This document shows positions 6,807 through 58,925 of a DNA stretch of 64,000 nucleotides, one piece after another (position 1 is the stretch's first letter; every line of letters starts with the position of its first letter). Under the pieces are notes generated by a model that saw only the letters and a program-made list of their open reading frames with translations, did not search any database and was not told the DNA's origin. The DNA comes from an uncultured Candidatus Saccharibacteria bacterium (GTDB taxonomy: Bacteria > Patescibacteriota > Minisyncoccia > Phycocordibacterales > CAYSCM01). A program made the position numbers and the translations under genes. The DNA lies in contig CAYSCM010000001.1 in assembly GCA_964429815.1 (NCBI GenBank), positions 288,001 to 352,000 on the forward strand, in the 5' to 3' direction.

Positions 6807-6813
6807 TTTGCTG

Positions 6814-16276: not shown

Positions 16277-16287
16277 CTCTCAGGTCG

Positions 16288-16656: not shown

Positions 16657-16726
16657 ACTTACATTATAGTCGAGTGTTGATACCCGGATCTGTCCGATAC
16701 AAAAGTCTTCGGGCGGGCCGCTCGGG

Positions 16727-16792
16727 ATTCAAACTTTTAAGCTCAATAAACACGAGGGTATTTTTGGCCCATCTTGGTGCAATCTGTTGAGG
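16727..16792 (-). repeat. attC-like repeat copy B
   Basis: In gene orientation: CCTCAAC ... aaaaGTTTGAATcccgagcggcccg. Confidence 0.4.
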
Positions 16793-16863
16793 CCTTCGAG
16801 TCGCAAAGGTTTCTTTGGGATTATCCGAATTGAACTCCGGGAAGATCCTTTCGACGTAACCTG

Positions 16864-17553
16864 CTACCATTGTCCGAGATCAAGAACCGGCTTGCCGATA
16901 ACCGCGTTTTGTGCGACGGTCCAAGTGGAGGTTGCGGACGGATTGTCCTTGGAAAGATACCACTCGCCGCTCTGAATTGTCGTTCCGTTTATTATTTCAC
17001 CAGGAACGCCAATAACCCGAGCGATGATATTGTGCGAACTTTGGCCAGAACCAACTCTGGCAAGAATGATATCGCCTTTTTGTACGGAGCGATCATATTT
17101 TTCAATTATGAGATATTCATTTGCCGGATAAGTTGGCGCCATCGAATCCCCGCTCATCAGAAAAGGTTCGAGGAGAAAACCCCGAAAAGCTACAATGATT
17201 ATAATCGCAAACAACCAGAACGCGACAGAGCCGGTGAGGAGGGCAGGTAAAAATTTCCAGAAGGTGACGGCAAAATATTTCCGATACAGAAAATACGCAA
17301 CAGCGTAGAAAACTAAAGTTATCGAGAGCTTAAAGATGCCTGCTCCAAGCCAGAAAACCAGCACGCCCACGATGGCTGACGCGACTGTGGAAAGAAAAAG
17401 AATTATTGCAACGCGCCCAAAAGTGCTTGTTTTGATCCCATACAATTTATTTGCCAAATTCACAAACTCGATGCTACCAATGAAAAACAGTCCGCCAACA
17501 ATCAGTATGGGCACAAGAATAGTAAGACTCATGTTAAGATTATACCTTTCCAA
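16864..17553 (-). CDS. lepB: signal peptidase I with extra N-terminal TM region (cassette)
   Basis: SGDSMAPT serine box and RVIGVPGE box. Confidence 0.7.
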   Translation of the reverse strand: MERYNLNMSLTILVPILIVGGLFFIGSIEFVNLANKLYGIKTSTFGRVAIILFLSTVASAIVGVLVFWLGAGIFKLSITLVFYAVAYFLYRKYFAVTFWKFLPALLTGSVAFWLFAIIIIVAFRGFLLEPFLMSGDSMAPTYPANEYLIIEKYDRSVQKGDIILARVGSGQSSHNIIARVIGVPGEIINGTTIQSGEWYLSKDNPSATSTWTVAQNAVIGKPVLDLGQW

Positions 17554-17721
17554 AAAGGTTACTTACATTGTTCACTCAAACCCTCAGGTCTACCGATAAA
17601 AAGTTGTCAATGCGGAGAGGGCCGGTCTAGAACTCGGCCTCGTCAAGCAGTGTAAGGGTTTCTTGGCAACTTGGCGACCACGCGTTTTCAGGGAGAACGG
17701 TCGGGAGCTGTTGAATGCGAC

Positions 17722-18294
17722 CTAATGTAATCTCTTACCAGATCGCATCATCGCGAGAAGTACTTCCATACGGCGAGCTCTCGTTTCTAGCCTTTTAGCC
17801 GTTTGGAGTCTCCACGCAATCGCGTAGGTATTCACACGATTGAGTGACTTGAAAAAATCGTAAGCCTTCGGATCTTTTTTTACCGCTTCAACAAAATCCG
17901 CGGGGACCTCCGCCGTACTCCCGACGTCATAGGCTCGATCCCATCGGCCATCCTTTTTTGCCGCGTCTATCTCCCTCTTCCCAGCAGCGGTCATGCGGCC
18001 TTCTTTAAGTAGACGAAGGACGTGCTCGCGATTCCGCTTCGACCACATGCTTTGTGGACGGCGTGGCGTAAATTTTTGCAAGAATGAACCGGCATCATAG
18101 GCCTTCTTTTGCCCGTCAATCCATCCATAACAAAGCGCTTCATCGAGGGCTTCATCATAGGTTGCGGATTTGTGGCCGGAACCTTTTTTGTAAATACGGA
18201 GCCAAACACCTTCCGAACGCGAGTAATGCTTTGAAAGCCACGAACGCCAACTCGCAGCCATAGCAAACAATTTGATCGGAATTTTTTTCGCCAT
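17722..18294 (-). CDS. YdeI/OmpD-associated family protein (cassette)
   Basis: GxSxG-free basic protein matching the YdeI/OmdA bacteriocin-protection family pattern. Confidence 0.45.
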   Translation of the reverse strand: MAKKIPIKLFAMAASWRSWLSKHYSRSEGVWLRIYKKGSGHKSATYDEALDEALCYGWIDGQKKAYDAGSFLQKFTPRRPQSMWSKRNREHVLRLLKEGRMTAAGKREIDAAKKDGRWDRAYDVGSTAEVPADFVEAVKKDPKAYDFFKSLNRVNTYAIAWRLQTAKRLETRARRMEVLLAMMRSGKRLH

Positions 18295-18322
18295 GAGCCA
18301 AACGTTTTGCGGGCCACTCGGG

Positions 18323-18387
18323 ATTCAACTTTTAGAGGTCAATCCCCGCAAGAGTATTTTGGTGGATTCAATGCCGACTTGTTGAGG
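18323..18387 (-). repeat. attC-like repeat copy C
   Basis: In gene orientation, 65 nt from CCTCAAC (R''-like) to GTTGAAT (perfect GTTRRRY), with imperfect internal inverted repeats. Lies between the hydrolase stop and the YdeI start. Confidence 0.45.
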
Positions 18388-18436
18388 CACTCGGGTCGGA
18401 GTCTATAAAGCAGTGGGCTTACTAAATTGCCTGAGG

Positions 18437-19051
18437 CTACCTGGCATCTGTTTTGATCATTTTAACGATTTCCGGGAATCGCTCGATGTTGAAATGTCCG
18501 TTTTTGCTCTTGAAGATAGTTATTTGCGCAGTTGGAAGTTTTGCTCGATATTTTTCTGCGTGCGCGACTGGGACAACATCGTCATCTTTCGAGAACAGAA
18601 GGTAAAGATTCTTACAGTTCTGCTGAATCATCGAAAGGTTTTTCTTAAGCTCAAAGCCTCCGGCTAGCCTGTCGCCTGGCATGTCGTCGTCAAACGGAGG
18701 ACATACGAGATATATCGAAATTGCTTTCTTGGACAGTTTGTTTTCAGAAAGATATTTAGCGAGGAAAATGCCACCGAGAGAGCCACCAATGAGAATGAAA
18801 GGTCGTCTAAGGAGCAGGAGATAATTCTCGAACATAATCTTCCAATCACGATACTGCGAATTGTCCTGCAGCGGCATTCGTGGAATCGTCACAACAAACT
18901 TGGCGCCCAGATCTTTTTGGAGATTATCGCTGTTCCAGCGGATCCGTTTACCCAGCGTTACCTTCTTAGTTTTAAGATATTTGACATATTCCTTGTCGGA
19001 CACAAAAGTATTGCCACCATGGATATAGAGGACATCTATTTTCCTTTTCAT
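18437..19051 (-). CDS. alpha/beta hydrolase (RBBP9/YdeN-like serine hydrolase) (cassette)
   Basis: GGSLGG nucleophile elbow. Low GC. Confidence 0.55.
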   Translation of the reverse strand: MKRKIDVLYIHGGNTFVSDKEYVKYLKTKKVTLGKRIRWNSDNLQKDLGAKFVVTIPRMPLQDNSQYRDWKIMFENYLLLLRRPFILIGGSLGGIFLAKYLSENKLSKKAISIYLVCPPFDDDMPGDRLAGGFELKKNLSMIQQNCKNLYLLFSKDDDVVPVAHAEKYRAKLPTAQITIFKSKNGHFNIERFPEIVKMIKTDAR

Positions 19052-36488: not shown

Positions 36489-37055
36489 ATGAATGAGATA
36501 ACGTTCCTCAATCTCGAGTATTTTTTTCTCCTGATTTACAACTTTTTTACGGGAGCGCATATCGTCGCCGCGCCCGAACACATTCGGGCCATTTGGAAGA
36601 CGTTTTCTTTTTTCTCCACGTTCATCAGCCTCCTTTTCCTTTCCGTCGCCATATATTCCTATGTGCGTCTGAGGGCCATCCGTCGGGATGAAGTGAAAAA
36701 GTATGGATACGTGCCCCTAGTCGAGTCTCCGCGGGAAAGGCACGACCCTCGTTGGCAACGGGTAGAGGCGCTCATGTCTTCGCTCAATGAGAACGACTGG
36801 CGCCAGGCCATCATCGAGGCGGATGTCATGCTCGACGATATGCTAAAAGGCATGGGCTACCCCGGCGATACGCTCGGGGAGCGGCTCAAGTCCATCGAAT
36901 CGAGCGATTTCGAAACCCTCAACGATGCATGGGAAGCGCACAAAATACGAAACGAGATAGCGCACGGCGGACTCGATTACCACCTCGACCGACGTCGCGC
37001 GCAGCACGCTGTCAACCTCTTCGGGAACGTGTTTCGTGCAAATTATTTGATATAG
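36489..37055 (+). CDS. membrane-anchored HEPN-type (DUF4145/Abi_C-like) protein
   Basis: Two N-terminal transmembrane helices. C-terminal Rx4H motif in HKIRNEIAHGG, typical of HEPN/DUF4145. Confidence 0.4.
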   Translation: MNEITFLNLEYFFLLIYNFFTGAHIVAAPEHIRAIWKTFSFFSTFISLLFLSVAIYSYVRLRAIRRDEVKKYGYVPLVESPRERHDPRWQRVEALMSSLNENDWRQAIIEADVMLDDMLKGMGYPGDTLGERLKSIESSDFETLNDAWEAHKIRNEIAHGGLDYHLDRRRAQHAVNLFGNVFRANYLI

Positions 37056-37060
37056 AAACC

Positions 37061-37190
37061 GGGGATTGGTCACACGTTTCGCTTCGCGAACTCGCGATCC
37101 CGCCCCACCGTCGCCTCACTCTCTCCGCAATCCAGAGAACAGAAAAGGACACGCAGAAGCGTGTCCTTTTCTGTTCTTGTTACACAGCTA
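37061..37190. repeat. R1 repeat family copy 1 (structured element with 19-bp hairpin 37136-37177)
   Basis: Shares ggggattggtcac...cgcgaa..cgcgatccc...ctctctccgcaatccagagaacagaaaag hairpin with copy 2. The hairpin differs by a compensatory G:C insertion. Confidence 0.5.
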
Positions 37191-37240
37191 GGACGATAGT
37201 GGCTCAAGATTTATAAGTTGGTTTTCCACACTTATGCTGC

Positions 37241-38080
37241 CTAGAAGTTTATATTTATGACGGTTCCGGCTACGTCTGAAATGTGGAAATAGGGTGGAGG
37301 TGATAAGGATTCAGAATTGAAAACGAAAGGATGTGAGGTTGTGGAAATACCGTCGCTTGCCTTGAAGGAGATCTGAAAAGTCGGGGTGTAGAATACTACA
37401 GTCGACATAAGATCACTTAATTTCGTTACCATCGGAACTAGATAATCATATATGCCGTCATGACCAACCGTTGCACTAATGGCTGTCATGTTTGGCGTCA
37501 ACGAAAAAGTAGAGGTTGCATTAGCAAAATGGTCATACGCGACGACCTGTATTGAACGGAAATCAATTGGAAAGGTAGTGTTCAAGGTAACCGAGCTGTT
37601 AGAAAGAACTGCGTAAATTACCTTTTTAGGAAGCACAGGAATTTGAGGACTTGCTACCGCTACTACAAGAGGCGGTGGGCCTTGTGGTGTAGGTGGTGGT
37701 GCCGGCTGGAACTCCTTTTTCTGCTGAGCAATTAACATATTCATCTTATTCTCTAAGTCCTGTATTGCGGCCGTTGTCGTGGGGGCGCTTTGACCGTCAG
37801 CACTTGTCGAAACCTGACTGATATGTTTCCGCGTAAGGGGACCGACATAACCCGACGCAGGAGAAATGCCCTCTTTAATTTGGAACGCGATTACAGCCCT
37901 CTTTGTCATAGGTCCGAAGAATGAAGTAATCGGTCCGGAATATACATTTTTTAATGTAAGAAATTGCTGAAGAGCAGCAACATCAGCACCTCTGATTCCT
38001 AGTGACAGGTTTCTATTGAAAGTAGCGTCAGCAAAAGCTACTAGAGGCAAAACTGCGAATACCAAAAGAAGTTTCTTCAT
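37241..38080 (-). CDS. secreted peptidoglycan-binding-domain protein
   Basis: Signal peptide MKKLLLVFAVLPLVAFA. PG_binding_1-like GIRGADVAALQQFL...GPMTKRAVIAFQ. Pro-rich linker. Low GC. Confidence 0.5.
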   Translation of the reverse strand: MKKLLLVFAVLPLVAFADATFNRNLSLGIRGADVAALQQFLTLKNVYSGPITSFFGPMTKRAVIAFQIKEGISPASGYVGPLTRKHISQVSTSADGQSAPTTTAAIQDLENKMNMLIAQQKKEFQPAPPPTPQGPPPLVVAVASPQIPVLPKKVIYAVLSNSSVTLNTTFPIDFRSIQVVAYDHFANATSTFSLTPNMTAISATVGHDGIYDYLVPMVTKLSDLMSTVVFYTPTFQISFKASDGISTTSHPFVFNSESLSPPPYFHISDVAGTVININF

Positions 38081-38159
38081 TGAATACAATATGCAACAAC
38101 TGGCGCCGTTAAGCAAAATTACTCGAATCCGTCAAAGTGTGAGATTTTGTTCATTGCGG

Positions 38160-38348
38160 GGTAATTGGTCACGGATATTTCGCTCGTCGTCGCTCGCGAA
38201 ATTCCGCGACCCCGGCTCGGCATCGAAATCCGCTGATTTCGATATGCCTGCGCCTTGCAATTCCCGCCGCGAGGCAAGTAGTTGCCTCGCTCTCTCCACA
38301 AACCAGAGAACAGAAAAGACACGCAAAAGCGTGTCTTTTCTGTTCTTG
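38160..38348. repeat. R1 repeat family copy 2 (hairpin 38307-38346), abutting the tRNA-Met 3' end
   Basis: Same head motif and hairpin as copy 1. Ends 1-2 nt from the tRNA 3' end. Confidence 0.5.
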
Positions 38349-38420
38349 TTGCGGGGGCGGGAATTGCACCCGCGACCTCAAGGTTATGAGCCTTGCGAGC
38401 TACTGCTGCTCCACCCCGCT
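38349..38420 (-). tRNA. tRNA-Met (anticodon CAT), initiator-like
   Basis: Near-identical architecture to E. coli tRNA-fMet (aGCGGGGUGGAGCAGC...CUCAUAAC...CCCCGCA A), with a 1:72 A-A mismatch. Confidence 0.75.
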
Positions 38421-38489
38421 ATGATGGGAGAAGTATAGCCAAAGGGGAGATTTATGCAAATAAAAAAGTAACCCGCTGGTGTATGCGGG

Positions 38490-38822
38490 TTACGAGGCTT
38501 TGCCGTTGTATTTCTTTCGGCCGCGCTTAAATTCTTTGAGCACTTCGTCAGAGATGAGGAGAAATTCCTTCTGCCCACCATCGTCCACGTGCTTTTTGCG
38601 CCGAATCGGAATTTTCATCCAAAGGGTCCTTGAGCGGGTGTAGAGGTAGATCACCTCTACGGGTCCCTCGTCGGAAAAGACGCCGACATCCTTTCGAGGA
38701 TCCTCCGGTCCAAAACCTTTCTTATAAATGTGCTGCGGTTCCTTGGGATCGTCGTTTTTCTCGATGTAGGGCATCCCATGCGGGATGTCGCGAAAGTGCA
38801 TGAGTCCCAATTTCATGACCAA
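38490..38822 (-). CDS. hypothetical protein
   Basis: ORF only. Confidence 0.25.
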   Translation of the reverse strand: MVMKLGLMHFRDIPHGMPYIEKNDDPKEPQHIYKKGFGPEDPRKDVGVFSDEGPVEVIYLYTRSRTLWMKIPIRRKKHVDDGGQKEFLLISDEVLKEFKRGRKKYNGKAS

Positions 38823-38979
38823 CCCCCTGTGCTCCTTTTTCCTACTTGATGATGTGATGGAAATAGAGTTGCGTCAACGAACAAAGCCCAATTCAAGTTT
38901 TTATTTTGCGTAACCTGGTGGACGCTGTTGGAACTAAAATACGTGAAAATCAGGAATGCATTTATATTCCCGATCTATC

Positions 38980-39261
38980 CTAAGAATCACCCTCAATCAT
39001 CTCGCCCACCAAAAAGTCGCAGCCATTAGGGCCGACGACTGCCGTGTGCTCCTTACTAGGTGGGACATCAAATCGGTCACCTTCTTTAAGGGTTACTTCT
39101 TCATCACCAAACTGAAACGTGAGTCCGCCGCCAAGTATGTACATGCTGACTTTGTCCTTGTGGACATGCGCCGGGTACTTCGTTCGTGCGTCATCATGCC
39201 ATTCATACACGTGAGGGAATCCTTCGTCAGCCAATTTGTGCTTCAATACCTCTTTATCCAT
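38980..39261 (-). CDS. cupin-domain protein
   Basis: Two His-containing cupin motifs (HVHKDK...; TFQFGDEEVTLKEGD). Confidence 0.5.
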   Translation of the reverse strand: MDKEVLKHKLADEGFPHVYEWHDDARTKYPAHVHKDKVSMYILGGGLTFQFGDEEVTLKEGDRFDVPPSKEHTAVVGPNGCDFLVGEMIEGDS

Positions 39262-48263: not shown

Positions 48264-48334
48264 TGCGGGATCGTCTAATGGTAGGACACCAGGTTCTGGC
48301 CCTGGTAATCTAGGTTCGAGCCCTAGTCCCGCAG
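48264..48334 (+). tRNA. tRNA-Gln (anticodon CTG)
   Basis: U1:A72 acceptor (tgcggga/tcccgca), 3-bp D-stem, anticodon loop uuCUGgc. Confidence 0.75.
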
Positions 48335-48450
48335 CAGCAGTCAGCGCAGTATCGTGCGAGACCGGAGAGCCTCAGAACTCAAAGGTCCGCCGATTCGCTG
48401 AATGTACTATTCCGTTATTGCATATCCGGTGAGTCCGGTATTCAGAACAA

Positions 48451-48493: not shown

Positions 48494-49825
48494 CTAGAGA
48501 TATCTTTTTGCTTTTAATGTGATTCTGGTTTTAAGAGTTCCTAGCAGTTCACGCTTCTCAAGAACATCGCCTTCTGTCAGGACATGTCTCACATAATGCC
48601 GTGCATCGAAGTGTTCCTCGACACGCTGCGGTGATTGCTGCCCCAAGAACATTCTTTGGAATTTCTTAGCTCGGGCGCGTTCCTCCTCAAATTTCTTGCG
48701 AATTATCGGCTCATTGAGTTCTAATTTATCTATCTGCTCTATGAGTTGTCGGACAAGCTCCTCTTCGCGAATGTAACCGGCGGCTCTACAGGCGCGATCC
48801 TTTGAGCGATTGCATCCGTAGTACAGGTACGTGGCAGTCGTGCCCGTGCTTTTGATGAGTTTGTGCTTCTCCTCGGCGCAGACACCCGAGCCGCACGCTC
48901 CGCAGGTGATGAGTCGTGTGAAGGCGAACTCCTTGGACTCACCGCGCACAATTCTGTCGCGCTTGAGTTGTGCCAGCACCTTTTCATACAGTTCACGGGT
49001 GATTATCGGTTCGTGTTTGCCCGTGTACCATTTGCCGCTCCCGATTGGGTACTCAAACTGTCCGAAGTAGAACGGCGTCTGCAGGATTTTGTAAATGTTA
49101 CTCAAAGTCAGAGGCTTATTGCTCGTTGCGCTTCGGAAATTCATATCGAACTTGAGCCAGTGATAGAGCTTTTGCCCAGACCATTTCTCGTATGCGACCT
49201 TCTCGAACATCTGCCGAACGACTGGTGCACGGTCGGGGTCGACCATGACGTACCCCTTCCGGTCGACACGTTTCTCGTTGAGGTAGCCGGTCGGCGCAGG
49301 CGCAGGCCATAAGCCCATCTCACAGCGCATGCGGAGGCCTCGCTTCACATTCACACTTTTGTTGTCGTTCTCAAGCTTTGCCTGACTGCACAAAATCATG
49401 AGAAGAAATTTCTCACTCGGTGAATTTGTGAACTTCTGGCCGTATGTTCGGATCTCGACGAGAAGTTTTTGGTCCATCAAGTCCACCAGACTCCCGAGGT
49501 CGCCTGCGTTGCGGCTCAGGCGGTCTGGGTTCCAGGTGAGTACACCGTTGAACCGTCCGGAGCGGATGTCTTTGAGAATCTCATTGAACACAGGCCGCTG
49601 GCCGGAGTCCTTCGCAGAGTGTGCTTCACGCCGGATGTCCACGATCTCGATGCCATCACGCTCCGCGATCTCGAGCATTTCCTTCACCTGAGAGTCGATG
49701 GACAGTGCCTGTTTTTCGCTCGTGTCCTCAGTCGACTTTCGAGCGTAGAGTACATACTTAACTGGTACTGCTAATTGCGGCACGAAAGTGCCTGGAGCTC
49801 TAGCCCCTCGGGTTATGGTTTCCAT
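48494..49825 (-). CDS. large serine recombinase (resolvase-domain integrase)
   Basis: N-terminal resolvase domain YARKSTED..S, recombinase domain, C-terminal CxxC...C zinc ribbon and coiled coil. Confidence 0.8.
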   Translation of the reverse strand: METITRGARAPGTFVPQLAVPVKYVLYARKSTEDTSEKQALSIDSQVKEMLEIAERDGIEIVDIRREAHSAKDSGQRPVFNEILKDIRSGRFNGVLTWNPDRLSRNAGDLGSLVDLMDQKLLVEIRTYGQKFTNSPSEKFLLMILCSQAKLENDNKSVNVKRGLRMRCEMGLWPAPAPTGYLNEKRVDRKGYVMVDPDRAPVVRQMFEKVAYEKWSGQKLYHWLKFDMNFRSATSNKPLTLSNIYKILQTPFYFGQFEYPIGSGKWYTGKHEPIITRELYEKVLAQLKRDRIVRGESKEFAFTRLITCGACGSGVCAEEKHKLIKSTGTTATYLYYGCNRSKDRACRAAGYIREEELVRQLIEQIDKLELNEPIIRKKFEEERARAKKFQRMFLGQQSPQRVEEHFDARHYVRHVLTEGDVLEKRELLGTLKTRITLKAKRYL

Positions 49826-49917: not shown

Positions 49918-50229
49918 ATGATGGTAGGTATGGAAGATTCAGTTTCAGGGTACAAAGCAGTTAAACGGCTCGCGGTAGAGCGGCCTGATTGGCTCCCTAT
50001 CATTCGAGAGTGCTTGAATTTGCGGAAAGAGATTCACAACACTGACTTTGCTGGCGCATGGGTATATCAGCGTCTTCAAGAGAAGGGCGGACCGAAATTT
50101 TCAAATCTGCGTCTTCTTGTTAGCTTTGGCATCTTGAAGAAAGAGGCGACCTCACGCGGTGGTCGACGCGCGTACTACTCCTTCGTCGATCCTGAGGGTG
50201 TCGAGAAAGCATTAAGCGAGCTTTCATAA
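49918..50229 (+). CDS. hypothetical protein
   Basis: ORF. Preceded by the agttggtaacct motif. Confidence 0.3.
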   Translation: MMVGMEDSVSGYKAVKRLAVERPDWLPIIRECLNLRKEIHNTDFAGAWVYQRLQEKGGPKFSNLRLLVSFGILKKEATSRGGRRAYYSFVDPEGVEKALSELS

Positions 50230-50233
50230 TTTT

Positions 50234-51331
50234 ATGAAAGTCAAAGTTGCGAACACAAGCCTACACGGCGCAAAGAAAGCGAAAAAAGACGAGTTCTACA
50301 CTCAACTCGTTGATATTGAAAAAGAGCTGAAGCACTACAAAAACCAGTTTCGCGGCAAAGTCGTGTACTGCAACTGTGACGACCCGTTCGAAAGCAACTT
50401 TTTCAAATACTTTGCCGCAAATTTCAACGCGCTTGAGTTGAAAAAACTTATCACGACGAGCTTCGTCAAATCGCCTATCGCTGGTGGGCAGTTGCCGCTT
50501 TTTGAAATGCAGGGGCTAAAACCCGACGGCAAAGAACCGTTTAAAATTGCAATACGGGAGGTCCCAGACGCGGACGGCGACGGTGCAATCAATCTTGATG
50601 ATGTGAAGTATCTACTGCAGCACGACAAGAACACAGCAACCCCGCTGAAAGGAAACGGCGATTTCCGCAGCGATGAATGCATGGAATTTCTTAAAGAGGC
50701 AGACATCGTCGTGACAAACCCGCCATTCTCACTTTTTCGTGAATACATTTCGCAACTGGTAGAACACAACAAAAAATTCCTGATCATCGGCAACATCAAC
50801 GCCGTCACCTACAAAGAAGTGTTCCCTTTGATTAAGGCAAACAAACTATGGCTCGGTGCAAGTATCCATAGTGGGGACCGCGAGTTCCGAGTGCCGGAGG
50901 ACTACCCGCTAAACGCAGCTGGCTACCGAGTTGACAGCGACGGAAACAAATATATTCGCGTCAAAGGTGTGCGCTGGTTTACCAATCTCGATTACGACGA
51001 ACGCCACGACAGCGTTGTGCTTTACAAAAAGTATTCGCCAAAAGAATATCCTAAATACGATAACTACGACGCCATAAATGTGAACAAAACTGTTGATATT
51101 CCCATGGACTATAAAGGCGCTATCGGTGTACCAATTACTTTCCTTGATAAATACAGCCCCGACCAATTTACAATTCTAGGCGCACTAATCTCTGGTCCAC
51201 TTGGACAAGAGCTAGGAGCGACCAAAACAAAACAGATCAGGCCAAACGGAAAAACGACAATGGAATACGGGCCTATTATCAAGACGAAGGGTTATTACGG
51301 AAGGATTGTCATTAAAAATAAAACGCTATGA
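50234..51331 (+). CDS. N6-adenine DNA methyltransferase (EcoRI-methylase-like/phage Dam-like)
   Basis: DEFYTQ N-terminal motif and VTNPPFS (motif IV NPPF). Confidence 0.55.
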   Translation: MKVKVANTSLHGAKKAKKDEFYTQLVDIEKELKHYKNQFRGKVVYCNCDDPFESNFFKYFAANFNALELKKLITTSFVKSPIAGGQLPLFEMQGLKPDGKEPFKIAIREVPDADGDGAINLDDVKYLLQHDKNTATPLKGNGDFRSDECMEFLKEADIVVTNPPFSLFREYISQLVEHNKKFLIIGNINAVTYKEVFPLIKANKLWLGASIHSGDREFRVPEDYPLNAAGYRVDSDGNKYIRVKGVRWFTNLDYDERHDSVVLYKKYSPKEYPKYDNYDAINVNKTVDIPMDYKGAIGVPITFLDKYSPDQFTILGALISGPLGQELGATKTKQIRPNGKTTMEYGPIIKTKGYYGRIVIKNKTL

Positions 51332-52419
51332 AAATCGAGCTACAAAAAATAAAAATACGCGATGTCGTGAATGGCTACAAAGACAGCGCCGAGGAAGGCG
51401 TCGTAGCGTATGGTGGTAAGCTCGATATTCGTCCAAAGTACCAGCGTGAGTTCATCTACAAAGACAAACAGCGCGATGCGGTGCTTGATACGGTCAAGAA
51501 AGGATTTCCACTCAACGTTATGTATTGGATGGTGCGGGAGGACGGCGGTTATGAAGTGCTCGACGGCCAACAGCGCACCATCAGCATCGGCCAGTATGTC
51601 AATGGTGATTTCTCGCTCGGCGACCGCTATTTCCACAATCTCATCAAGGAGGAGCAAGAGCAGATTTTGAGCTACGAGCTGATGATTTATTTCTGTGAGG
51701 GCACAGATAAGGAACGGCTCGACTGGTTTAGGACAATCAACATCGCGGGCGAAAAGTTAACAGACCAAGAGCTTCGCAATGCTGTATACACTGGCCCTTG
51801 GCTTTCAGACGCAAAACTCAAATTCAGCAAGACGGGCTGTGCTGCCTATCACTTGGCAAACGACGGTGGGGCGCTCGTCAGTGGCTCGCCGATCCGACAG
51901 GAGTATTTGGAAACTGCACTCTCATGGATAAACAAGGGTGAGGTTGCGGCCTACATGGCGAAGCATCAGCATGACAAAGACGCTGAGAAACTATGGACTT
52001 ACTTCCAAGACGTAATTGGGTGGGCGCGAAAGACGTTCCCCAACTACCGCAAGGAAATGGCGCATGTGAACTGGGGTGAACTATACAATGAGTTCAAAGA
52101 CAAGAAACTGAATGCCGCCAAACTCGAAACCGAAGTCAAGAAACTAATGCAGGACGAGGATGTAACGAAAAAGTCCGGCATCTATCCGTATGTTTTGACC
52201 GGCAACGAGCGCGAACTTTCTATCCGCGCGTTCACCGACAAAATGAAGCGCGAGGCATACGAGCGACAAGACGGCGTCTGTCCGTTTTGCAAAAAGAAGT
52301 TTGACGTTTCAGAAATGGAAGCCGACCACATCACGCCATGGCATGAGGGCGGAAAAACAACAGCTGAAAACTGCCAGATGCTCTGCAAGCAAGATAACCG
52401 GACAAAGTCCGGGAAATGA
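51328..52419 (+). CDS. DUF262 (ParB-like) N-terminal domain fused to a C-terminal HNH endonuclease
   Basis: DGQQR motif of DUF262. C-terminal CPFC...DHITPWHEGG...NCQMLC...N HNH. ATGA overlap with the MTase. Confidence 0.6.
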   Translation: MKIELQKIKIRDVVNGYKDSAEEGVVAYGGKLDIRPKYQREFIYKDKQRDAVLDTVKKGFPLNVMYWMVREDGGYEVLDGQQRTISIGQYVNGDFSLGDRYFHNLIKEEQEQILSYELMIYFCEGTDKERLDWFRTINIAGEKLTDQELRNAVYTGPWLSDAKLKFSKTGCAAYHLANDGGALVSGSPIRQEYLETALSWINKGEVAAYMAKHQHDKDAEKLWTYFQDVIGWARKTFPNYRKEMAHVNWGELYNEFKDKKLNAAKLETEVKKLMQDEDVTKKSGIYPYVLTGNERELSIRAFTDKMKREAYERQDGVCPFCKKKFDVSEMEADHITPWHEGGKTTAENCQMLCKQDNRTKSGK

Positions 52420-52476
52420 ATCGAGAAGTCATCGAAAAAAACATGGCGACGAAATGACACAGACCATAAATATCCC

Positions 52477-53184
52477 ATGATAGAGCTACCATCTTGGCTT
52501 AAGATTGGAAAAATAATCGAAAAACTCGATTTCTCCAATTGGTTTAGTCGCCAGTTAAGAGATGATCAGCGTAAGTATGTGGGTGGGGACTACATCGAGA
52601 AAGTGGAAATACATAACCACGCTCCTTCAGGCACCATCGAGGAAGATCCGCTGGCCAGAGGACTGTATACGCTTGGTTTGGAAAGACGGCAGGTAGACAC
52701 GTACGGGGGCTTCTTCAATAGTTTTTATCTAGAAGTAGAGAAGAGACGGGAGCGTCAAATAACGAGAAGTGCTCATACCATGCTATTGGGTGCGGTTTTT
52801 GCCGTCGGGACAAAGTATCAAAACAATCCTGAGTGGAAAGAACACTGCTCATCGTCATTACGTGAAATATTCCACGAGTGGAGTGGCCCAGATGAATTCA
52901 GGCGGGACCTTGTTTCTGTCTACAACCACAGCAACGCAAAAGGAGGGCTTGCAACAGACGAGGAGGATAGTCTAACGTCATTTTGGCTTCTGTATCGATA
53001 TTTCTCTAGTATAGATCATCATCAAGCATCCGGAATACTGCACGCTCTACGCGCATTTCTTAGAGATAGCTCGCTTAAAATCGAGGACTGCGTGAATGAC
53101 GATATTTTTATTGAGAGAGCAAAAGATTTCTTCTCACATTTATCTCGTATTTCTGAAATCGCAAAGAAACGTACTGAACCATGA
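52477..53184 (+). CDS. hypothetical protein (235 aa), first gene of an unknown two-gene module
   Basis: ORF. ATGA-coupled to the next gene. Confidence 0.3.
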   Translation: MIELPSWLKIGKIIEKLDFSNWFSRQLRDDQRKYVGGDYIEKVEIHNHAPSGTIEEDPLARGLYTLGLERRQVDTYGGFFNSFYLEVEKRRERQITRSAHTMLLGAVFAVGTKYQNNPEWKEHCSSSLREIFHEWSGPDEFRRDLVSVYNHSNAKGGLATDEEDSLTSFWLLYRYFSSIDHHQASGILHALRAFLRDSSLKIEDCVNDDIFIERAKDFFSHLSRISEIAKKRTEP

Positions 53185-56177
53185 ACCAGATCGAATTACA
53201 CAACAGGATAGATGAGTACATTGCTCACGGCCCAGGGAAGGCTGCATGGACGGCTGTAAAAAAAATAACTGAGATTCACCTCGACGTGAAGAAGTATTTT
53301 TATACTAGAGCCGATGAAAAGTGGTTTGACTTGGTACGCGGAGATATTCTGAATGTGGCGAAGACAAAAGCTAGTGATCCCACGAAATACTCATATCAAA
53401 CGCCTGAGCTTGATTATTTGGCTCGGGTGGCTGAGATAATTCCACAGAAGGTCACTAAACTCATTTTAGACACTTCCATATCTAAAGAGAACTTCAATCC
53501 AGAAGTGGTTGATCGTTTTCTTTGGATTTCGAGCAAATTGCCCGCCGACCAACTTAAACGAGTAGTCGTGAAAATCCGCGATGATCAATGGATTCAACTT
53601 ATGGCGCCTTTCAATAGGTGGGTTTTTGAATATCAAAAGATGTTCGAGACGCTTGCAGTTGCCAAGGACCAGGACAGCATACTTATCCTTGCGGAAGCGG
53701 TTTTGCGGACACGTTCAAAGGATGAGCTGGCAAAGATTAACAATGGGATATCGACGGACAATCCCTTCTTCCTTTCAGACCTCAGCGAAACAGACATTTT
53801 CAGTCTTCTTGCCTCTTCTGATGATAAACATCTAGATGCTGCTCTTCGGGTCGCAACTAATGCACTCGCGGGCGTTATCAGGACTGGCGATCGAGAAGAT
53901 AACGTTTTTGAAATCGGTGAGATTTTTCACCTCTTTGATGTTGACTTTTTTTCTCTTGAATTGGGCAAGGGCCGACATTATTCACATAGAGATGAGGTCA
54001 GAGAACTGGCAGCCGTTGTCAAAACACTCGTGAATCGCTCTATTGGTAAGAGCTGCAACGATTCAAAAGAGACTCGCCGGATCTACGAACACATAGAACG
54101 TTTGCCGGATAGTCGATCCATGTGGCGACTGCGGCTCTATGTCTGGAGTCTGTGTCCGAAGGTGTTCAAGGACGAATTACAGACTGCATTTTTCAAGGGC
54201 CTAGAGTCGCGAGAAATGTTATGGCCAATTACAGGCGGTGCGGAATACGATCACGCTCTTAAAAGGTGTTTTGATGTTGTTCTGTCCGAGGAGGACCGGA
54301 AGGCATATATTCAACGTGCCTTTGAGATACTTGACGTGAATGAAGAGCACCCATACGGCTACGGTATATTTGCCAGTATCCAAAGGCATCTGTCAGAACC
54401 GCAGAAGCAGCGGGTGGAAGCCCTCTACAAGATGCCGCTTGATCCAAATTATACGCCTGAGCCTAGCGTAGGTCATTCGTATGCCGGCACAATAGTTTCG
54501 CAGTCACCCAAGGAGGCAGATGATGTCTGGGGAAAGCCGGTTCCGGAGATTGTACAAGCTCTAGAAACCCGCTTGACGCCGGAGCAACTACAAAAGATAG
54601 ACGGTAGGAAAGATTTTCTAAAACCGGTAAACGCAGAGGGGGTGGCGGATAAAATGCGGTCACAAATGAAAGAACGCACGAGTGAATATACCGCCAACGC
54701 GACTTTGTTTTTCGATAGAAAACTAATGGATCCACACTACACCTACTCCTTCTTCCGTGGCGTGGATGAGATTATTCGCTTGCATCGAGAAAAAGTGTCA
54801 GAAATAAACTGGCAGCAGATTATTGCGCTTGGTGTCGCAATTACGAAAGAAGGACAACGAGAGTCTTTTGATTTCACTAAGCGAGAAAGGGAGCACTTCG
54901 ATGCCTGGCTCGCAGGATGGATTGGTGTACACGACGGCCTCGGAGATGTTTTGCAGGATTATCTCCGAAATGATAACGGAATCACTGAGGAGTCCTTCAA
55001 TAAGAACCGGGAGGATCTTTTCAAGATTATTTGCTACCTACTCACCATACCGGATCCGGTTCCTAAGGACGAGCAACCTGAAACGGCTGGCATGACTACC
55101 ACGCCGCCCGGCGGAGAGAAATTAGTGAGCGATCCTTTCGCGATAGCCATTAACTCGGTTCGCGGCCGAGCATATCAAGCGTTCGTAATGTTTATGGAGT
55201 GGGATGGGCGTAAGTATGCGAAGGACGCAAAAGTGAAGCTATCTCCAGATGTATTGCAAGAGTACAAGGATCTTTTAGCGCGTGAAAATACCGGCGCAAT
55301 TTTCTTCATGTACGGACACTATCTACCGTTTTTCTACTTCCGCGATGTTAAGGAAGTCCGAAAGCTCCTCCCGCAAATATTTACGAGCGACAGTAAAAAG
55401 GTTCATCTGTATCTCGCGGCGTGGGAGGGTTATCTGACTCGTAGTCTCTATCGAGAGATGTTTGTCCAGCTACAGGGTGAATACGAACGAGCAATCAAAA
55501 ATAATCCTGACTCTTATCCGAAAAGAAATTACCGTGCAGACCTTGACGAAGCATTAGCAACTCATATGGCATTGGCGTACATCCACTTCGAGGATTTCAC
55601 GCTTGATTCAAGTCTGTTCAAACTTTTTTGGAGCACTCCAAACCAAAAGAGGTATCAAGAGTTTGTATCATTCATCGGACGCTATGTGATCTCGAAAGAT
55701 CATGCAAAGGAGAATCTCGCTGAAAATCCTGAGATCAAACTTTCTAAGCTTATTGACTTCTGGGATTGGACGCTTGAATACGTTAATGACCCGGATGTAT
55801 TTGCCGAATATGGTTTCTGGATGGATACAACCGGTGGTTTATATGACGATGTAACGGCACTTGCCCGAAGGATTCAGAAAACACTCAAAAAATCTAAAGG
55901 TAAAGTCGACTGGGAGATTAAGCTAATGGATTCGCTCCCGACGTTGGCGGCAGCAGTCCCCAAGGACACACTGGAGATTTTACGACTTTATCTCAAACCA
56001 CTTGATGTGAGCCCACGCAGTCGACACTTCATGCATGTCGACGCCGACCTTGTAAATATTTTCAGGACGCTGCATAAGAATCCAGAGACTCAAGACGAGA
56101 CTTATAAGTTGATCGACGAACTCCTGCCGTTGGGGAATGGGGTGTATTGGAAGTTGAAGGAGGCCTTAACGGAGTAG
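53181..56177 (+). CDS. large hypothetical protein (998 aa), no recognisable catalytic motifs
   Basis: Long uninterrupted ORF, predicted helical/repeat-rich. No Walker A or nuclease motifs seen by eye. Confidence 0.4.
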   Translation: MNQIELHNRIDEYIAHGPGKAAWTAVKKITEIHLDVKKYFYTRADEKWFDLVRGDILNVAKTKASDPTKYSYQTPELDYLARVAEIIPQKVTKLILDTSISKENFNPEVVDRFLWISSKLPADQLKRVVVKIRDDQWIQLMAPFNRWVFEYQKMFETLAVAKDQDSILILAEAVLRTRSKDELAKINNGISTDNPFFLSDLSETDIFSLLASSDDKHLDAALRVATNALAGVIRTGDREDNVFEIGEIFHLFDVDFFSLELGKGRHYSHRDEVRELAAVVKTLVNRSIGKSCNDSKETRRIYEHIERLPDSRSMWRLRLYVWSLCPKVFKDELQTAFFKGLESREMLWPITGGAEYDHALKRCFDVVLSEEDRKAYIQRAFEILDVNEEHPYGYGIFASIQRHLSEPQKQRVEALYKMPLDPNYTPEPSVGHSYAGTIVSQSPKEADDVWGKPVPEIVQALETRLTPEQLQKIDGRKDFLKPVNAEGVADKMRSQMKERTSEYTANATLFFDRKLMDPHYTYSFFRGVDEIIRLHREKVSEINWQQIIALGVAITKEGQRESFDFTKREREHFDAWLAGWIGVHDGLGDVLQDYLRNDNGITEESFNKNREDLFKIICYLLTIPDPVPKDEQPETAGMTTTPPGGEKLVSDPFAIAINSVRGRAYQAFVMFMEWDGRKYAKDAKVKLSPDVLQEYKDLLARENTGAIFFMYGHYLPFFYFRDVKEVRKLLPQIFTSDSKKVHLYLAAWEGYLTRSLYREMFVQLQGEYERAIKNNPDSYPKRNYRADLDEALATHMALAYIHFEDFTLDSSLFKLFWSTPNQKRYQEFVSFIGRYVISKDHAKENLAENPEIKLSKLIDFWDWTLEYVNDPDVFAEYGFWMDTTGGLYDDVTALARRIQKTLKKSKGKVDWEIKLMDSLPTLAAAVPKDTLEILRLYLKPLDVSPRSRHFMHVDADLVNIFRTLHKNPETQDETYKLIDELLPLGNGVYWKLKEALTE

Positions 56178-56178: not shown

Positions 56179-56397
56179 TTAGAGGAAATACTCAACATTC
56201 TTTCCGTATAGCTTCGCCAGCTTGTTGAGCCATATTGCTTCTACCCGCAATTCTCCCAGCTCAACTTTCGACACCCACGACTGAGAGCATTTGAGTTTGT
56301 CAGCGACCTCGGCTTGTGTCAGCCCCGCATCAAGGCGGGCTTTCCTCAGTCGCTTCACGAATACAGCCCGCTCGTCAGTATGAATGGACTTTCTCAT
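56179..56397 (-). CDS. XRE-family HTH transcriptional regulator
   Basis: LTQAEVADKLKCSQSWVSKVE helix-turn-helix. Confidence 0.7.
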   Translation of the reverse strand: MRKSIHTDERAVFVKRLRKARLDAGLTQAEVADKLKCSQSWVSKVELGELRVEAIWLNKLAKLYGKNVEYFL

Positions 56398-56527
56398 ACC
56401 TATAAGCGTCTATTCCGTTATGGGATATTCCAAAATGGAATATTCAATGTTAGGCTACGAATGTCCGACAAAGGCAAGAGTTGGTAACCTCCTTCGCAAG
56501 CCTCCGAATCTAAGTTAGGAACACCAC

Positions 56528-56995
56528 ATGGACCCTATATCCAATAACAAGCGTAATACCATCCTTACCGGCGTCTCCGGCGAGTACTACGTCGCCGCTG
56601 AACTTTCGCGTCGTGGATACCTCGCCTCTATCACACTTCGCAACACCAAAGGCGTAGACATCCTCTGCTCAAACGCGGAGGCGAGTAAATCTGTAGGTAT
56701 CCAGGTAAAGGCAAAGTCGGGTAATGATCGTGTATGGATTCTCAACGAGAAAGGAGAACATTACTACGCGAACAATCTCTTTTACGTTTTTATCAACATC
56801 GACGACGGTCTCAACAAGCATCCTGAGTACACGGTCGTGCCCAGTAAGGTAGTTGCCGAGTACGCTCGCGAGTCGCACGCGAGGTGGTTAAGCGAACCGA
56901 AGAAGGACGGCAGCGCTCGCAAAGACACGACTATGCGGAAGTTTCAGGATCCGGAGGAGAAGTATCTTGGTCGGTGGGATCTGTTGGGTCTTTGA
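56528..56995 (+). CDS. PD-(D/E)xK nuclease superfamily protein (DUF4365-like)
   Basis: GEYYVAAEL ... GVDIL ... IQVKAK resembling the D...(E/Q)xK core. Confidence 0.4.
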   Translation: MDPISNNKRNTILTGVSGEYYVAAELSRRGYLASITLRNTKGVDILCSNAEASKSVGIQVKAKSGNDRVWILNEKGEHYYANNLFYVFINIDDGLNKHPEYTVVPSKVVAEYARESHARWLSEPKKDGSARKDTTMRKFQDPEEKYLGRWDLLGL

Positions 56996-57560
56996 ATTCG
57001 TTCCCGTATTTCTCATTCAACCTCTCGAGTGTCTTTTTGCTAATAACGATCTGCCCGTTTTCGTCTGAAAATGCTTCAATTAGGTCTTGTTTTCTCTGTC
57101 TCTCAACTTCGTCAAGGAATTTCTTCAACGAAGCCTCTCTGACAAGTAACTTCCCGTCGGGGCCGGTGAACATCCTCCGCAATTTCTTCAGGTCGATTTC
57201 CATCTGGTAGTCGGGACCGAATTCCTCATAGTCGTCGAACTTATCCATGAGCGGTATCTTCTCCTCCTCGCCGCGAAGCTTCGGGCTGTAGAACTTGCTG
57301 TTGTGCGTGAGGAAGAATTTGGAGTCCGCCTTGTCCCCGTTGTTGATCCCTTTGATGATGTTCGACTCCGCCTTCTCGCTCACGGCCTCCCGGCTCACTC
57401 TCCGCACGGTTTCCGCGGCCCGCTTGAATTCCGGGTCGTCGTGCATCCACCGGTATATGGTCATGCGCGTAACGTCGACCTTTCGCGCGGCCGTGCCGAT
57501 AAACGGCGTGGTCTCCAACGCCTTGAGGAATTCCTCGCGTTTATCGGCACCGTGCGTCAT
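56931..57560 (-). CDS. phage terminase small-subunit-like HTH protein
   Basis: N-terminal FIGTAARKVDVTRMTIYRWM HTH typical of TerS. Acidic C-terminus. Confidence 0.35.
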   Translation of the reverse strand: MTHGADKREEFLKALETTPFIGTAARKVDVTRMTIYRWMHDDPEFKRAAETVRRVSREAVSEKAESNIIKGINNGDKADSKFFLTHNSKFYSPKLRGEEEKIPLMDKFDDYEEFGPDYQMEIDLKKLRRMFTGPDGKLLVREASLKKFLDEVERQRKQDLIEAFSDENGQIVISKKTLERLNEKYGNEFKDPTDPTDQDTSPPDPETSA

Positions 57561-57563: not shown

Positions 57564-58925
57564 CTAGCCGATCTTCACGCGCTTCTTGCCTGTGAACTTC
57601 TCCCAGCGATTGAGAATTACTTCGGCGTACACAGGTGATTTCTCAATCAGGAAACAACGCCGACCAAGCGTGATGGATGCGATGAGCGTCGACCCGCTCC
57701 CGCCGAACGGCTCAAGCACGAGCTGCCCGCGCTTCGTGAGCGTCTTGATGTACGGCACGAGAATCTCGATCGGTTTTACGCCGAAGATGATCGCTTGGCC
57801 TGAAGATTTTTCATCAGCGGCATTGAACTCGATGAAATCGGTCGGGCAGTATTTCTTGTCTTTGCCGTAGCTCTCCCAGTGTGCGCCCTTGCCGTCAATG
57901 GCAAAGAGTGCCGTTTGGTACTCGTTCTCGTACAACTCCTGTTCGTTCTCGAGATTCAGACCGCTGTACTCCTCGCTCGTGCCGACCATCGCGATGTCGT
58001 GCTTGGAGAAGAACTTATTGCGCCCCGCGTATCCTTGGTTGCGGTTCGGCAAGTGCCACACGATCATATTGCGCACCTTCCAGTGCTTTTCCATCTCACT
58101 CCAGATTTCGCGAATGTTCTTCCAGTTTTCGTAGCAGATGATTGAGAAGTCCTTATTCGCAACTTTCGCAACATTGCTCATCCATTTCTCGGTGAAATCG
58201 GCTGGCAATGATTCTGTTTCAAGATAGCGACGGTTCTTCTTCGAGCCGAACCCAACCGTTGGCTCGCCATTGCGGGTCTTGCCTTTGAGGTAGTCCAGCC
58301 GATACGGAGGGTCCGTCATAACCATGTCCGCCTTTTCGGACATGAGCTTGAGCACATCTTCTTCGATAGTGCTGTCCCCACAGAGAAGCCGCGAACCGTC
58401 GAGCTCGTACACGTCGCCCTTCCGCACACCGATTGTTTTGATGTCGAGCTTTTTGAGCTCTTTCTCAAGTGAGAATTCCGCCTCCGTAGAATCTTCCTCA
58501 AAGATGTTGTCGAGTTCTTCGGAATCGAAGCCGACAGCCTCAAGGAATGCTTCGTCGAACTCGGCGAGCAACAGGTCGTAATCCCACTCACCGACAGCCT
58601 TGTTGAGGCGGAGGCAGAGGTCCTTCTCTTTTTCGATATCGGCAATGTGGACGAAGACGCACGGCACCTCCTTGTACCCGAGATCTTTCATGACTTCGAA
58701 GCGGAGGTTGCCGCCAATAATGACGTTCTCGCGCTCCTTGGCGCGGTTTACTACAAGGGGATCAACACTTCCATGCCGCTCAAGACTCTCGCGCACGGGC
58801 TTCTTCGTGTCATCGTTGACCAAACGAGGATTATATTCGGCGTGCTTAAGGCTGGTAATGGGAACATATTCGACCCACAGTTTGTGAGCCGTATCCGCAG
58901 AGACTGCGACAGTGTTTTTAGTCAT
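57564..58925 (-). CDS. ParB-like nuclease domain fused to N6/N4 DNA methyltransferase (phage-type orphan MTase)
   Basis: N-terminal ParB/Srx region. DPPY motif IV and EPFGGSGST motif I. Confidence 0.7.
   Translation of the reverse strand: MTKNTVAVSADTAHKLWVEYVPITSLKHAEYNPRLVNDDTKKPVRESLERHGSVDPLVVNRAKERENVIIGGNLRFEVMKDLGYKEVPCVFVHIADIEKEKDLCLRLNKAVGEWDYDLLLAEFDEAFLEAVGFDSEELDNIFEEDSTEAEFSLEKELKKLDIKTIGVRKGDVYELDGSRLLCGDSTIEEDVLKLMSEKADMVMTDPPYRLDYLKGKTRNGEPTVGFGSKKNRRYLETESLPADFTEKWMSNVAKVANKDFSIICYENWKNIREIWSEMEKHWKVRNMIVWHLPNRNQGYAGRNKFFSKHDIAMVGTSEEYSGLNLENEQELYENEYQTALFAIDGKGAHWESYGKDKKYCPTDFIEFNAADEKSSGQAIIFGVKPIEILVPYIKTLTKRGQLVLEPFGGSGSTLIASITLGRRCFLIEKSPVYAEVILNRWEKFTGKKRVKIG

Follow-up and report, generated by a model that had tools for sequence, protein, structure and literature searches.

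The closest described relatives of the gene pair analysed here are defence proteins in which an N-terminal output module precedes a long α-solenoid sensor. DSR1 (defence-associated sirtuin 1; Gao 2020, Garb 2022), a validated defence protein, depletes nicotinamide adenine dinucleotide (NAD+) by means of its SIR2 domain (Garb et al., bioRxiv 10.1101/2021.12.14.472415). According to a 2026 preprint (PMC12803255; bioRxiv 10.64898/2026.01.04.697583), the sensors of EcDsr1 and Avs7 are homologous, both EcDsr1 and SeAvs7 are triggered by the phage major capsid protein, and the shared sensor, which is bilobed and sharply bent and is represented by a set of 9,097 proteins, also occurs in non-STAND proteins, including split ones, with effectors given as NADase, nuclease, kinase, HEPN-like, transmembrane (TM) or 'unknown'. 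DSR2 (SIR2-MID-CTD; PMC11850899) is a single large protein that likewise combines an N-terminal effector with a C-terminal α-solenoid that binds a phage structural protein, in this case the tail tube protein. Here we analyse a pair of translationally coupled genes within 64,000 nucleotides of an uncultured Candidatus Saccharibacteria bacterium (GenBank assembly GCA_964429815.1, contig CAYSCM010000001.1, positions 288,001 to 352,000 of the forward strand; hereafter, the window). The pair is likely to encode a DSR1-lineage defence sensor together with its N-terminal module, split in two and devoid of the sirtuin, with a role against phages. We favour this reading because of the homology to DSR1, the solenoid fold of the larger product, the split-gene relation, the modularity of the partners and the genomic context.

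The two genes and their parts, in window coordinates, are the following.

52477-53184, + strand: small gene, 235 aa, ATG start (list of open reading frames, ORFs)
52477-52551, + strand: N-terminal hydrophobic/amphipathic peptide of the small protein, residues 1-25, MIELPSWLKIGKIIEKLDFSNWF... (predicted local distance difference test, pLDDT, 34-60 over residues 1-55 in the AlphaFold2, AF2, model)
52648-53175, + strand: core all-α domain of the small protein, residues 58-233, with two motifs
53181-56177, + strand: large gene, 998 aa, ATG start (ORF list)
53181-53648, + strand: residues 1-156 of the large protein, a highly conserved region at the junction, defined by colinear alignment with fused proteins
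54438-55976, + strand: DSR1-like sensor region of the large protein, residues 420-932, defined by PADLOC Dsr1 (PDLC04166)

A preliminary description of this stretch had listed two ATGA-coupled ORFs of 235 and 998 aa with low GC content, and these observations were verified. The start codon of the large ORF and the TGA stop of the small one overlap at 53181-53184 (...gaac cATGAacc...). The small ORF has a GC content of 0.441 and the large ORF one of 0.461; the value for both together is 0.457, compared with 0.531 for the whole window, and that of the entire co-directional array to which the pair belongs (49918-56177) is 0.465. The large protein has more than 240 homologues at 40-65% identity. 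A word-indexed search with the small protein returned only 14 close homologues; an exhaustive profile search of 1.84 billion representatives found its domain in 295 proteins, 201 of them at E<=1e-10. Because of the more than 240 large-protein homologues and the 295 small-domain representatives, each standing for a cluster at 50% identity, both genes can be regarded as real rather than chance ORFs.

The large protein has no family match in Pfam, NCBIfam or PHROG. Its AF2 model (pLDDT 90) is a continuous all-α, HEAT/ARM-like solenoid without an α/β domain, and its fold matches in the PDB are solenoids only, including the Avs4 sensor and generic HEAT/ARM proteins. When it was checked against the 5,027 PADLOC models, a single one, Dsr1 (PDLC04166), was matched (E 7.5e-19), with residues 420-932 aligned to positions 712-1167 of the 1227 in the profile, that is, to the part of DSR1 that follows SIR2. 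The same model was matched by six of nine further diverse relatives (E 1e-14 to 1e-21; seven of the ten members tested), and in one of them, P0072, the alignment covers residues 157-985 and profile positions 460-1207 (~750 positions). A further bridge is provided by a Legionella pneumophila plasmid protein found by tblastn with the window protein (E 2e-13), which matches PADLOC Dsr1 over profile positions 469-1214 (E 8.4e-34) and whose family is matched by the profile of the large-protein family (A2) at 1e-31 to 1e-44. This protein, WP_070322551.1 (789 aa; locus L097, 4708-7077, on the conjugative plasmid NZ_CP016871.1), is the only relative recovered in a plasmid search; it appears to have been truncated at the N-terminus by an IS3 insertion and has IS256 copies on its flanks. 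Its full-length relatives (P0290, P0292) measure 1,052-1,104 aa and have an N-terminal domain without a Pfam match. Neither product of the window pair has a family match to SIR2 in Pfam, NCBIfam or PADLOC, so that NAD depletion is not expected, nor to NTPase/AAA families in Pfam or PADLOC, and the STAND NTPase was accordingly not found. Judged by homology, the large protein is 'DSR1 without the sirtuin'.

The comparison with the described systems can be made explicit. With DSR1, the window pair shares homology over the ~750 residues that follow SIR2, the layout of an N-terminal output module and a long α-solenoid sensor, and location in defence islands and mobile elements. It differs in that an unrelated helical domain of ~175 aa stands in place of SIR2/NADase, in that the Dsr1 profile match starts at position 712 in the window protein and at 460 at best in its relatives, in being encoded by two translationally coupled genes, whereas DSR1 is a single polypeptide, and in its hosts, which are mainly Patescibacteria, whereas those of DSR1 are Proteobacteria. 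The two features of the Avs7/Dsr1-sensor superfamily, a homologous sensor and a variable N-terminal effector, were both found, and the family of the window pair displays the same modularity; however, it lacks a STAND NTPase and so is not Avs7, and its effector domain, compared with the text of the preprint alone, is not among the types named there. The large N-terminal-effector and C-terminal-solenoid architecture resembles that of DSR2, but neither sequence nor fold matches to DSR2 chains were obtained in the PDB searches, and the PADLOC Dsr2 models were unmatched. Since the SIR2 domain that defines DSR1 and the STAND NTPase that defines Avs are both missing, the pair is best filed, on its sequence features, under neither; it fits the broader class of proteins with a DSR1/Avs7-type sensor.

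Relatives of the large protein fall into two size classes, of ~1,000 aa and ~1,170-1,200 aa, and the ~180 aa by which the long class exceeds the short one at the N-terminus are homologous to residues ~58-233 of the small protein. The junction is colinear: the small protein ends in '...RISEIAKKRTEP' and the large one begins with 'MNQIELHNRIDEYI', and when joined they align to '...ISDTI-SAQLTIHKKIDLF...' of the single chains, in which the first helix of the large protein (MNQIELHNRIDEYI) continues the small protein. Across 70 sequences the junction region contains invariant D35, Y39, E76 and Y79 (consensus DARxYF..KADExWLDWLW...YRTPELxYL), and the Dsr1-aligned stretch of P0072 starts at residue 157, downstream of the counterpart of window residues 1-156. 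Because the small protein is homologous to, and colinear with, the N-terminus of single-chain relatives, the pair is a split gene, one protein in two pieces, which explains the translational coupling. In a scan of GTDB with one genome per species, which yielded 115 relatives of which the best 80 loci were kept, a hidden Markov model (HMM) of the small domain detected it fused in frame in 23 loci and in an adjacent upstream gene in 33; in 2 loci the contig ended at this point and in 22 the domain was undetected. The 'two-gene module' of the preliminary description is therefore a genuine unit whose pairing is conserved, with the correction that it is really a single protein in two parts.

The small protein has no match in Pfam, NCBIfam, PHROGs or PADLOC, and sequence searches of the PDB, whether by single sequence or by profile (A1, A2), returned no significant match. 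Its AF2 model is an all-α helical bundle, not a Rossmann fold, and the fold search gave no significant match. In the best 150 matches, the domain is found solely as a stand-alone protein (~165-300 aa) or at the N-terminus of proteins of ~1,100-1,300 aa and their truncations. Two motifs characterise it, GA...NP(D/E)W..(Q/H)..(H/S)SLREI, which includes R129 (codon 52861-52863), and (I/L)xHH, with H181-H182 at 53017-53022. Conservation was computed over 171 representatives at 50% clustering: R129 (170/170) and H181 (164/164) are invariant, S127 (166/170), E/D130 (166/170) and H182 (152/164) are nearly so, and N117, W120 and G105 are conserved in 158, 152 and 157 representatives, respectively. The conserved polar residues are retained in TM-anchored and divergent members as well. 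Thus, the earlier statement that neither protein has recognisable catalytic motifs stands as far as known motifs are concerned, but overlooks a strongly conserved polar constellation in the small one.

Sub-threshold matches to PF18165 (pP_pnuc_1, 'predicted pPIWI-associating nuclease') were obtained with 10 of 32 small-domain sequences, always in the region of motif 1 (profile positions ~10-44); the window protein itself has no such match. Both are short domains found in conflict-system contexts, but the scores are sub-threshold and PF18165 is itself only a predicted nuclease family, so that the similarity may serve as a lead and not as evidence of membership. A literature search turned up no paper on pP_pnuc_1, and the passages retrieved from the 2013 pPIWI-RE paper do not describe it. 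Two other assignments were considered and rejected. A HEPN RNase is ruled out by the motif spacing and by the lack of any HEPN match, the canonical Rx4-6H being absent. In P0290, P0292 and P0295, which are Legionella-type and high-GC DSR1-like proteins, the N-terminus resembles the small domain by eye ('CLREML...ILHNP', 'AHALREV'), yet comparison by HMM and hhalign gave E 0.04-0.1 and a probability of ~1%, which is not significant, and no relationship is claimed.

Ahead of the core domain, residues ~26-57 form a low-confidence linker with a GGDxIxxVxIHNH...DP motif, and the same motif is carried by members with a long hydrophobic or TM extension. The N-terminal peptide of the window protein recurs on P0122 and P0170 and, joined to a different helical domain, on the partner proteins of loci L044 and L050. 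As an observation in its own right, the pattern M(I)ELPxWLKI...(N/D)(F/I)S..F can be traced at window positions 52477-52551, in L044 (4549-5241), in L050 (7343-7993) and in P0170. This distribution suggests that the peptide acts as an independent module, possibly a membrane-associating one; that it binds the membrane in the window protein is hypothetical.

Nearly all of the 22 loci in which the small domain was undetected have another partner gene upstream of the sensor, and four loci have divergent forms of the domain.

L014, L028 and L072: CHAT caspase-like partners encoded immediately before the sensor (Pfam CHAT, 31.4 bits; gathering threshold, 24)
L018, L020, L033, L039, L041, L059, L073, L077, L091 and L092 (ten loci): partners of ~205-285 aa with an N-terminal TM helix
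L024: LmuA-like nuclease joined to a helical adaptor, its N-terminus matching the Lamassu effector LmuA (E 5e-13)
L044 and L050: helical domain of the LmuA-partner type with a window-type N-terminal peptide (MEFPAWLKLENIIKNLNFSNLF compared with MIELPSWLKIGKIIEKLDFSNWF)
Four loci: divergent small-domain members that keep '(T/D)LRE', three of them also 'AH'; L049 matches the HMM only over 'VH'

Modules at the N-terminus or upstream can thus be exchanged within this sensor family, among them a CHAT protease, an LmuA-like nuclease, TM proteins and FRG. The presence of unrelated upstream partners on one sensor scaffold amounts to a natural series of effector swaps.

The small domain occupies the position of the SIR2 NADase in DSR1. 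That the domain is an enzymatic effector is a real possibility, held tentatively; we favour it because the minimal domain plus the sensor constitutes the whole system in most members and because its polar residues are near-invariant. A serious rival, which we nevertheless consider unlikely, retains the same sensor and holds the small domain to be a non-enzymatic coupling element or switch (an adaptor, an auto-inhibitor or an oligomerisation module), with the toxic output either attached to it or acting in trans. It owes its seriousness to the add-on modules and the plain bundle fold: a TM-like helix precedes the domain in 8 of 140 representatives, the ELPxWLK peptide does so in P0121, P0122 and P0170, and an FRG domain in P0198 (Pfam 1.7e-16; PADLOC PDC-S15 3e-19), while the bundle itself has no enzyme match. 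Moreover, the window peptide recurs on the unrelated helical domain of L044 and L050, which in L024 bears the LmuA-like nuclease, as would be expected of swappable effectors; elsewhere in the family, sensors are accompanied by TM or CHAT partners that lack the small domain; and a gene with an Mrr_cat domain lies directly downstream in L011, L095 and L096. The output could then be the N-terminal peptide in the window protein, the TM helix, FRG, CHAT or nuclease modules in relatives, or a neighbouring restriction enzyme or Mrr-type nuclease. On the other hand, at least 85% of the domain-bearing representatives, among them 37 of the 39 that are long (fused-type), lack any add-on, so that the domain and the solenoid are all there is. 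Downstream, no gene recurs as a conserved third component (at most 4 of 71 loci share a cluster), and an Arg, a Glu/Asp, a Ser and a His-His pair that are (near-)invariant over 171 representatives point to an active site more readily than to a docking surface.

The distribution of the 80 best GTDB loci, by record title, is dominated by the Candidate Phyla Radiation (CPR).

Patescibacteria/CPR: 51 of 80 loci
Caldilineaceae: 11 of 80, including chromosomes of 4-6 Mb without phage genes
Metagenome-assembled genomes (MAGs) labelled Gammaproteobacteria: 7 of 80
Nitrospirales/Nitrospira: 2 of 80
Omnitrophota, Auribacterota, Aminicenantia, Verrucomicrobia, 'Angelobacter' and a Methanosarcinales MAG: 1 each of 80
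Unclassified: 3 of 80

A search of 50,697 phage genomes found no relative. Relatives are present on four IMG/VR contigs, one of which also encodes a large terminase.

In the window, the pair is flanked by the following genes.

48264-48335, + strand: tRNA-Gln gene (ARAGORN)
48494-49825, - strand: large serine recombinase (Pfam Resolvase, Recombinase and Zn_ribbon_recom)
49918 onwards, + strand: 103-aa ORF, first gene of the co-directional upstream array (49918-52419)
50234-51331, + strand: EcoRI-like N6-adenine methyltransferase (Pfam EcoRI_methylase, E 5e-149)
51328-52419, + strand: DUF262/GmrSD_N-HNH endonuclease (Pfam E 3e-17 and 1e-12; PADLOC REase_II E 3e-140)
56179-56397, - strand: XRE-type helix-turn-helix (HTH) protein (E 2e-12), convergent to the pair
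56528-56995, + strand: 155-aa ORF, matching only PHROG families without an assigned function
56931-57560, - strand: small-terminase-like HTH protein, 209 aa (phrog_4044, E 2e-8)
57564-58925, - strand: ParB-N6/N4 methyltransferase

The methyltransferase and the DUF262-HNH gene upstream and the XRE regulator downstream had been recognised in the preliminary description, and the Pfam assignments (EcoRI_methylase, GmrSD_N/DUF262 plus HNH, XRE-type HTH) agree with it. By contrast, the PD-(D/E)xK nuclease label given there to the 155-aa ORF is a motif-based guess and was not confirmed, the ORF having no match in Pfam, NCBIfam or PDB. It should be noted that this ORF and the terminase-like ORF of 209 aa are convergent and have 65 nt in common, and one of the predicted ends may be wrong. 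The anti-phage-island pattern proposed for the locus gains from the homology to validated DSR1 and from the pairing of related sensors with CHAT and an LmuA-like nuclease, but neither the XRE gene nor the 155-aa ORF is conserved with the pair in the loci of relatives. The mobile and defensive character of the surroundings is well founded, given the tRNA-Gln gene, the large serine recombinase and the upstream restriction-modification (RM) genes in the window, and the RM genes beside relatives described below; recurrent linkage to known defence genes and recombinases was indeed found across unrelated genomes.

The methyltransferase and the endonuclease together form, by their family matches, a type II RM system. 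Within the upstream array, the genes are separated by a 4-nt gap, an ATGA overlap and, before the small gene, 57 nt; a promoter and terminator scan of 49.7-56.7 kb gave counts not above the shuffled expectation. Among relatives, eight loci chosen for their long contigs were sampled. RM genes, of types I, II and III and DpnII, lie directly upstream and co-directional in six of them; in the seventh, L093, the nearby genes for methyltransferases, a ParB-methyltransferase and an integrase are on the opposite strand; and the eighth, that of the fused protein P0106, has TIR and HD genes beside the sensor and no RM. The type of RM system thus varies among relatives while the sensor pair stays. In the census of the 80 GTDB loci, which was made with single-sequence queries and gives lower bounds, RM genes occur within 8 kb in at least 19 loci and a serine recombinase in at least 17. 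Among the loci in which the partner or sensor gene begins before the stop codon of the restriction gene ahead of it are L099 (7398 vs 7401), L094 (7255 vs 7262) and L035 (-4 nt). This coupling in relatives suggests co-transcription and possible functional cooperation with RM. Two side observations concern these loci. Overlaps with a restriction-subunit gene, type I HsdR or type III Res, are located at 7398-7401 in L099 and at 7255-7262 and 8001-8004 in L094, and are also seen in L035 and L096. Further, a nuclease combining Mrr_cat with a Zn-ribbon of the Top1 type is encoded directly downstream in L011 (13019-13723), L095 (11022-11714), L096 (11490-12188), L019 and L053; the loci of this sub-clade also have DpnII or type III RM upstream, and the gene is not conserved across the family.

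Such proximity invites comparison with PrrC/RloC, to which the window pair is similar in lying directly beside, and probably being co-transcribed with, an RM system. By the logic of PrrC/EcoprrI, the pair would guard the adjacent RM system and fire when a phage anti-restriction protein inhibits the RM complex. The co-directional arrangement in six of the eight sampled loci, together with the nearby opposite-strand methyltransferase genes of L093, the overlaps with the restriction-gene stop in L099, L094 and L035, and the lack of promoter or terminator signals above chance between the RM genes and the pair in the window all agree with such a role. We nonetheless judge it very unlikely. The pair has no sequence relation to PrrC/RloC, no ABC-ATPase and no canonical HEPN motif, and the RM type is not conserved, which makes a specific protein-protein interface with an RM enzyme improbable. 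Furthermore, RM genes were recorded within 8 kb in only 19 of the 80 GTDB loci (a lower bound), and the fused P0106 has TIR and HD genes but no RM system as neighbours. The lineage in which homology places the sensor is reported to bind capsid protein directly, and the clustering of independent systems in defence islands accounts equally well for the linkage.

The region of the tRNA-Gln gene and the serine recombinase is probably the integration end of an element that bears the pair. The segment 48264-59450 looks like an integrative element of ~11 kb, a prophage remnant or a satellite-like element, with the defence cargo in the integrase-proximal slot. A recombinase-first skeleton recurs in the Gottesmanbacteria loci L003-L008, where type III RM replaces type II, and on the IMG/VR contig L099, which encodes a serine recombinase, type III Mod/Res, a fused sensor, a DinG-like helicase-exonuclease and a large terminase. 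An imperfect direct repeat of 19 nt (48407-48425, CTATTCCGTTATTGCATAT; 56410-56428, CTATTCCGTTATGGGATAT) brackets the segment from the recombinase to the XRE gene (8,003 nt), and could mark the element ends or be due to chance; a search for attachment sites found no repeat beyond it. Serine recombinases need no long repeats.

Given this setting, the pair might not be an immune system at all but a scaffold of the mobile element, involved in packaging, partition or regulation, its likeness to DSR1 being a generic helical-repeat resemblance. The small-terminase-like protein and ParB-methyltransferase of the element, the relatives on four IMG/VR contigs and the generic HEAT/ARM proteins among the PDB fold matches are compatible with this view. 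However, Dsr1 is the sole match among 5,027 PADLOC models, is matched by seven of ten members and aligns over ~750 profile positions; CHAT, LmuA-like nuclease and FRG partners make no sense for packaging; many of the loci are chromosomal and free of phage genes, as in the Caldilineaceae chromosomes; and none of the 50,697 phage genomes contains a match. We therefore give this explanation hardly any credence.

Under the favoured reading of a split DSR1-lineage defence sensor, the system can be pictured as follows. The small and large genes are co-translated from the ATGA overlap, and the 235-aa and 998-aa proteins would reassemble, 1:1, into the equivalent of the ~1,180-aa single-chain relatives. 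Late in infection, the solenoid would bind a phage structural protein, and this binding would turn on the N-terminal module; that the trigger is the capsid protein, by analogy with EcDsr1 and SeAvs7, is possible but rather doubtful. The small helical domain would itself provide the output, most likely as a new effector with hydrolytic (nuclease-like) activity, perhaps held at the membrane by the N-terminal peptide in the window version. Activation would stop phage production or kill the cell, and the whole would travel as integrase-proximal cargo beside RM on a serine-recombinase element. In its boldest form, the proposal would make the ~175-aa helical domain an undescribed class of immune effector enzyme, for example an all-α non-HEPN nuclease or hydrolase, switched on by a DSR1-type capsid sensor and serving as the main output of a system of unusually high prevalence in CPR/Patescibacteria. 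In some members, this one perhaps among them, it would act at the membrane through an N-terminal anchor. We put this proposal forward as speculation that is on balance unlikely to hold in full.

Several points weigh against this picture. The case for defence consists of homology and comparative genomics, and the trigger is carried over from distant E. coli and Salmonella proteins to proteins that are mainly patescibacterial. The similarity to DSR1 is confined to the repeat-rich sensor part, and no DSR1 or Avs7 structure is among the PDB matches. No enzyme family or fold matches the small domain significantly, its PF18165 scores of 12-17 bits fall short of the gathering threshold of 26.3 (best score 17.1 bits, at E 0.0045; best E 0.0019), and the TM, FRG or peptide modules ahead of it suit an adaptor as well as an effector. 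A membrane role of residues 1-25 is weak, the hydrophobic moment being only 0.29. Finally, PADLOC has no model for the small protein, and a standard defence-finder run would not call the system.

The last point applies to the family at large: none of Pfam, PADLOC, PHROGs and NCBIfam has a model for the partner domain, so that a family that comprises ~300 clusters at 50% identity and has 51 of its best 80 GTDB loci in CPR MAGs would escape standard defence finders. The CPR are ultra-small bacteria with very small genomes, and little of their antiviral repertoire has been charted. The locus had been described beforehand as an uncharacterised, novel system, which requires qualification, because the large protein belongs to the DSR1/Avs7-type sensor lineage, non-STAND members of which are already included in PMC12803255. 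Relative to the text of that preprint, and as far as checked, the conserved small domain, the split architecture, the CPR dominance and the tight coupling to RM appear to be new. The DSR1 sensor lineage thus reaches far past the proteins that bear a sirtuin, and its members can be divided between two genes. A compact domain with four or five near-invariant polar residues offers a handle for biochemistry, whether it is an effector or a switch, and the combination of interchangeable partners with tight RM coupling is useful for studying how sensors and outputs are combined in modular immunity.

Other features of the window lie apart from the pair. Two patches, at 15000-19000 and 37000-39000, have a GC content of 0.46-0.48 compared with ~0.55-0.58 in their flanks, and the one at 37-39 kb adjoins several tRNA genes. 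A gene for transfer-messenger RNA (tmRNA) is located at 6813-7183, with the tag AKSVTSPYFSAKDFSFAYATA, and a tRNA-Ile gene with the anticodon TAT, which is uncommon in bacteria, at 10733-10806.

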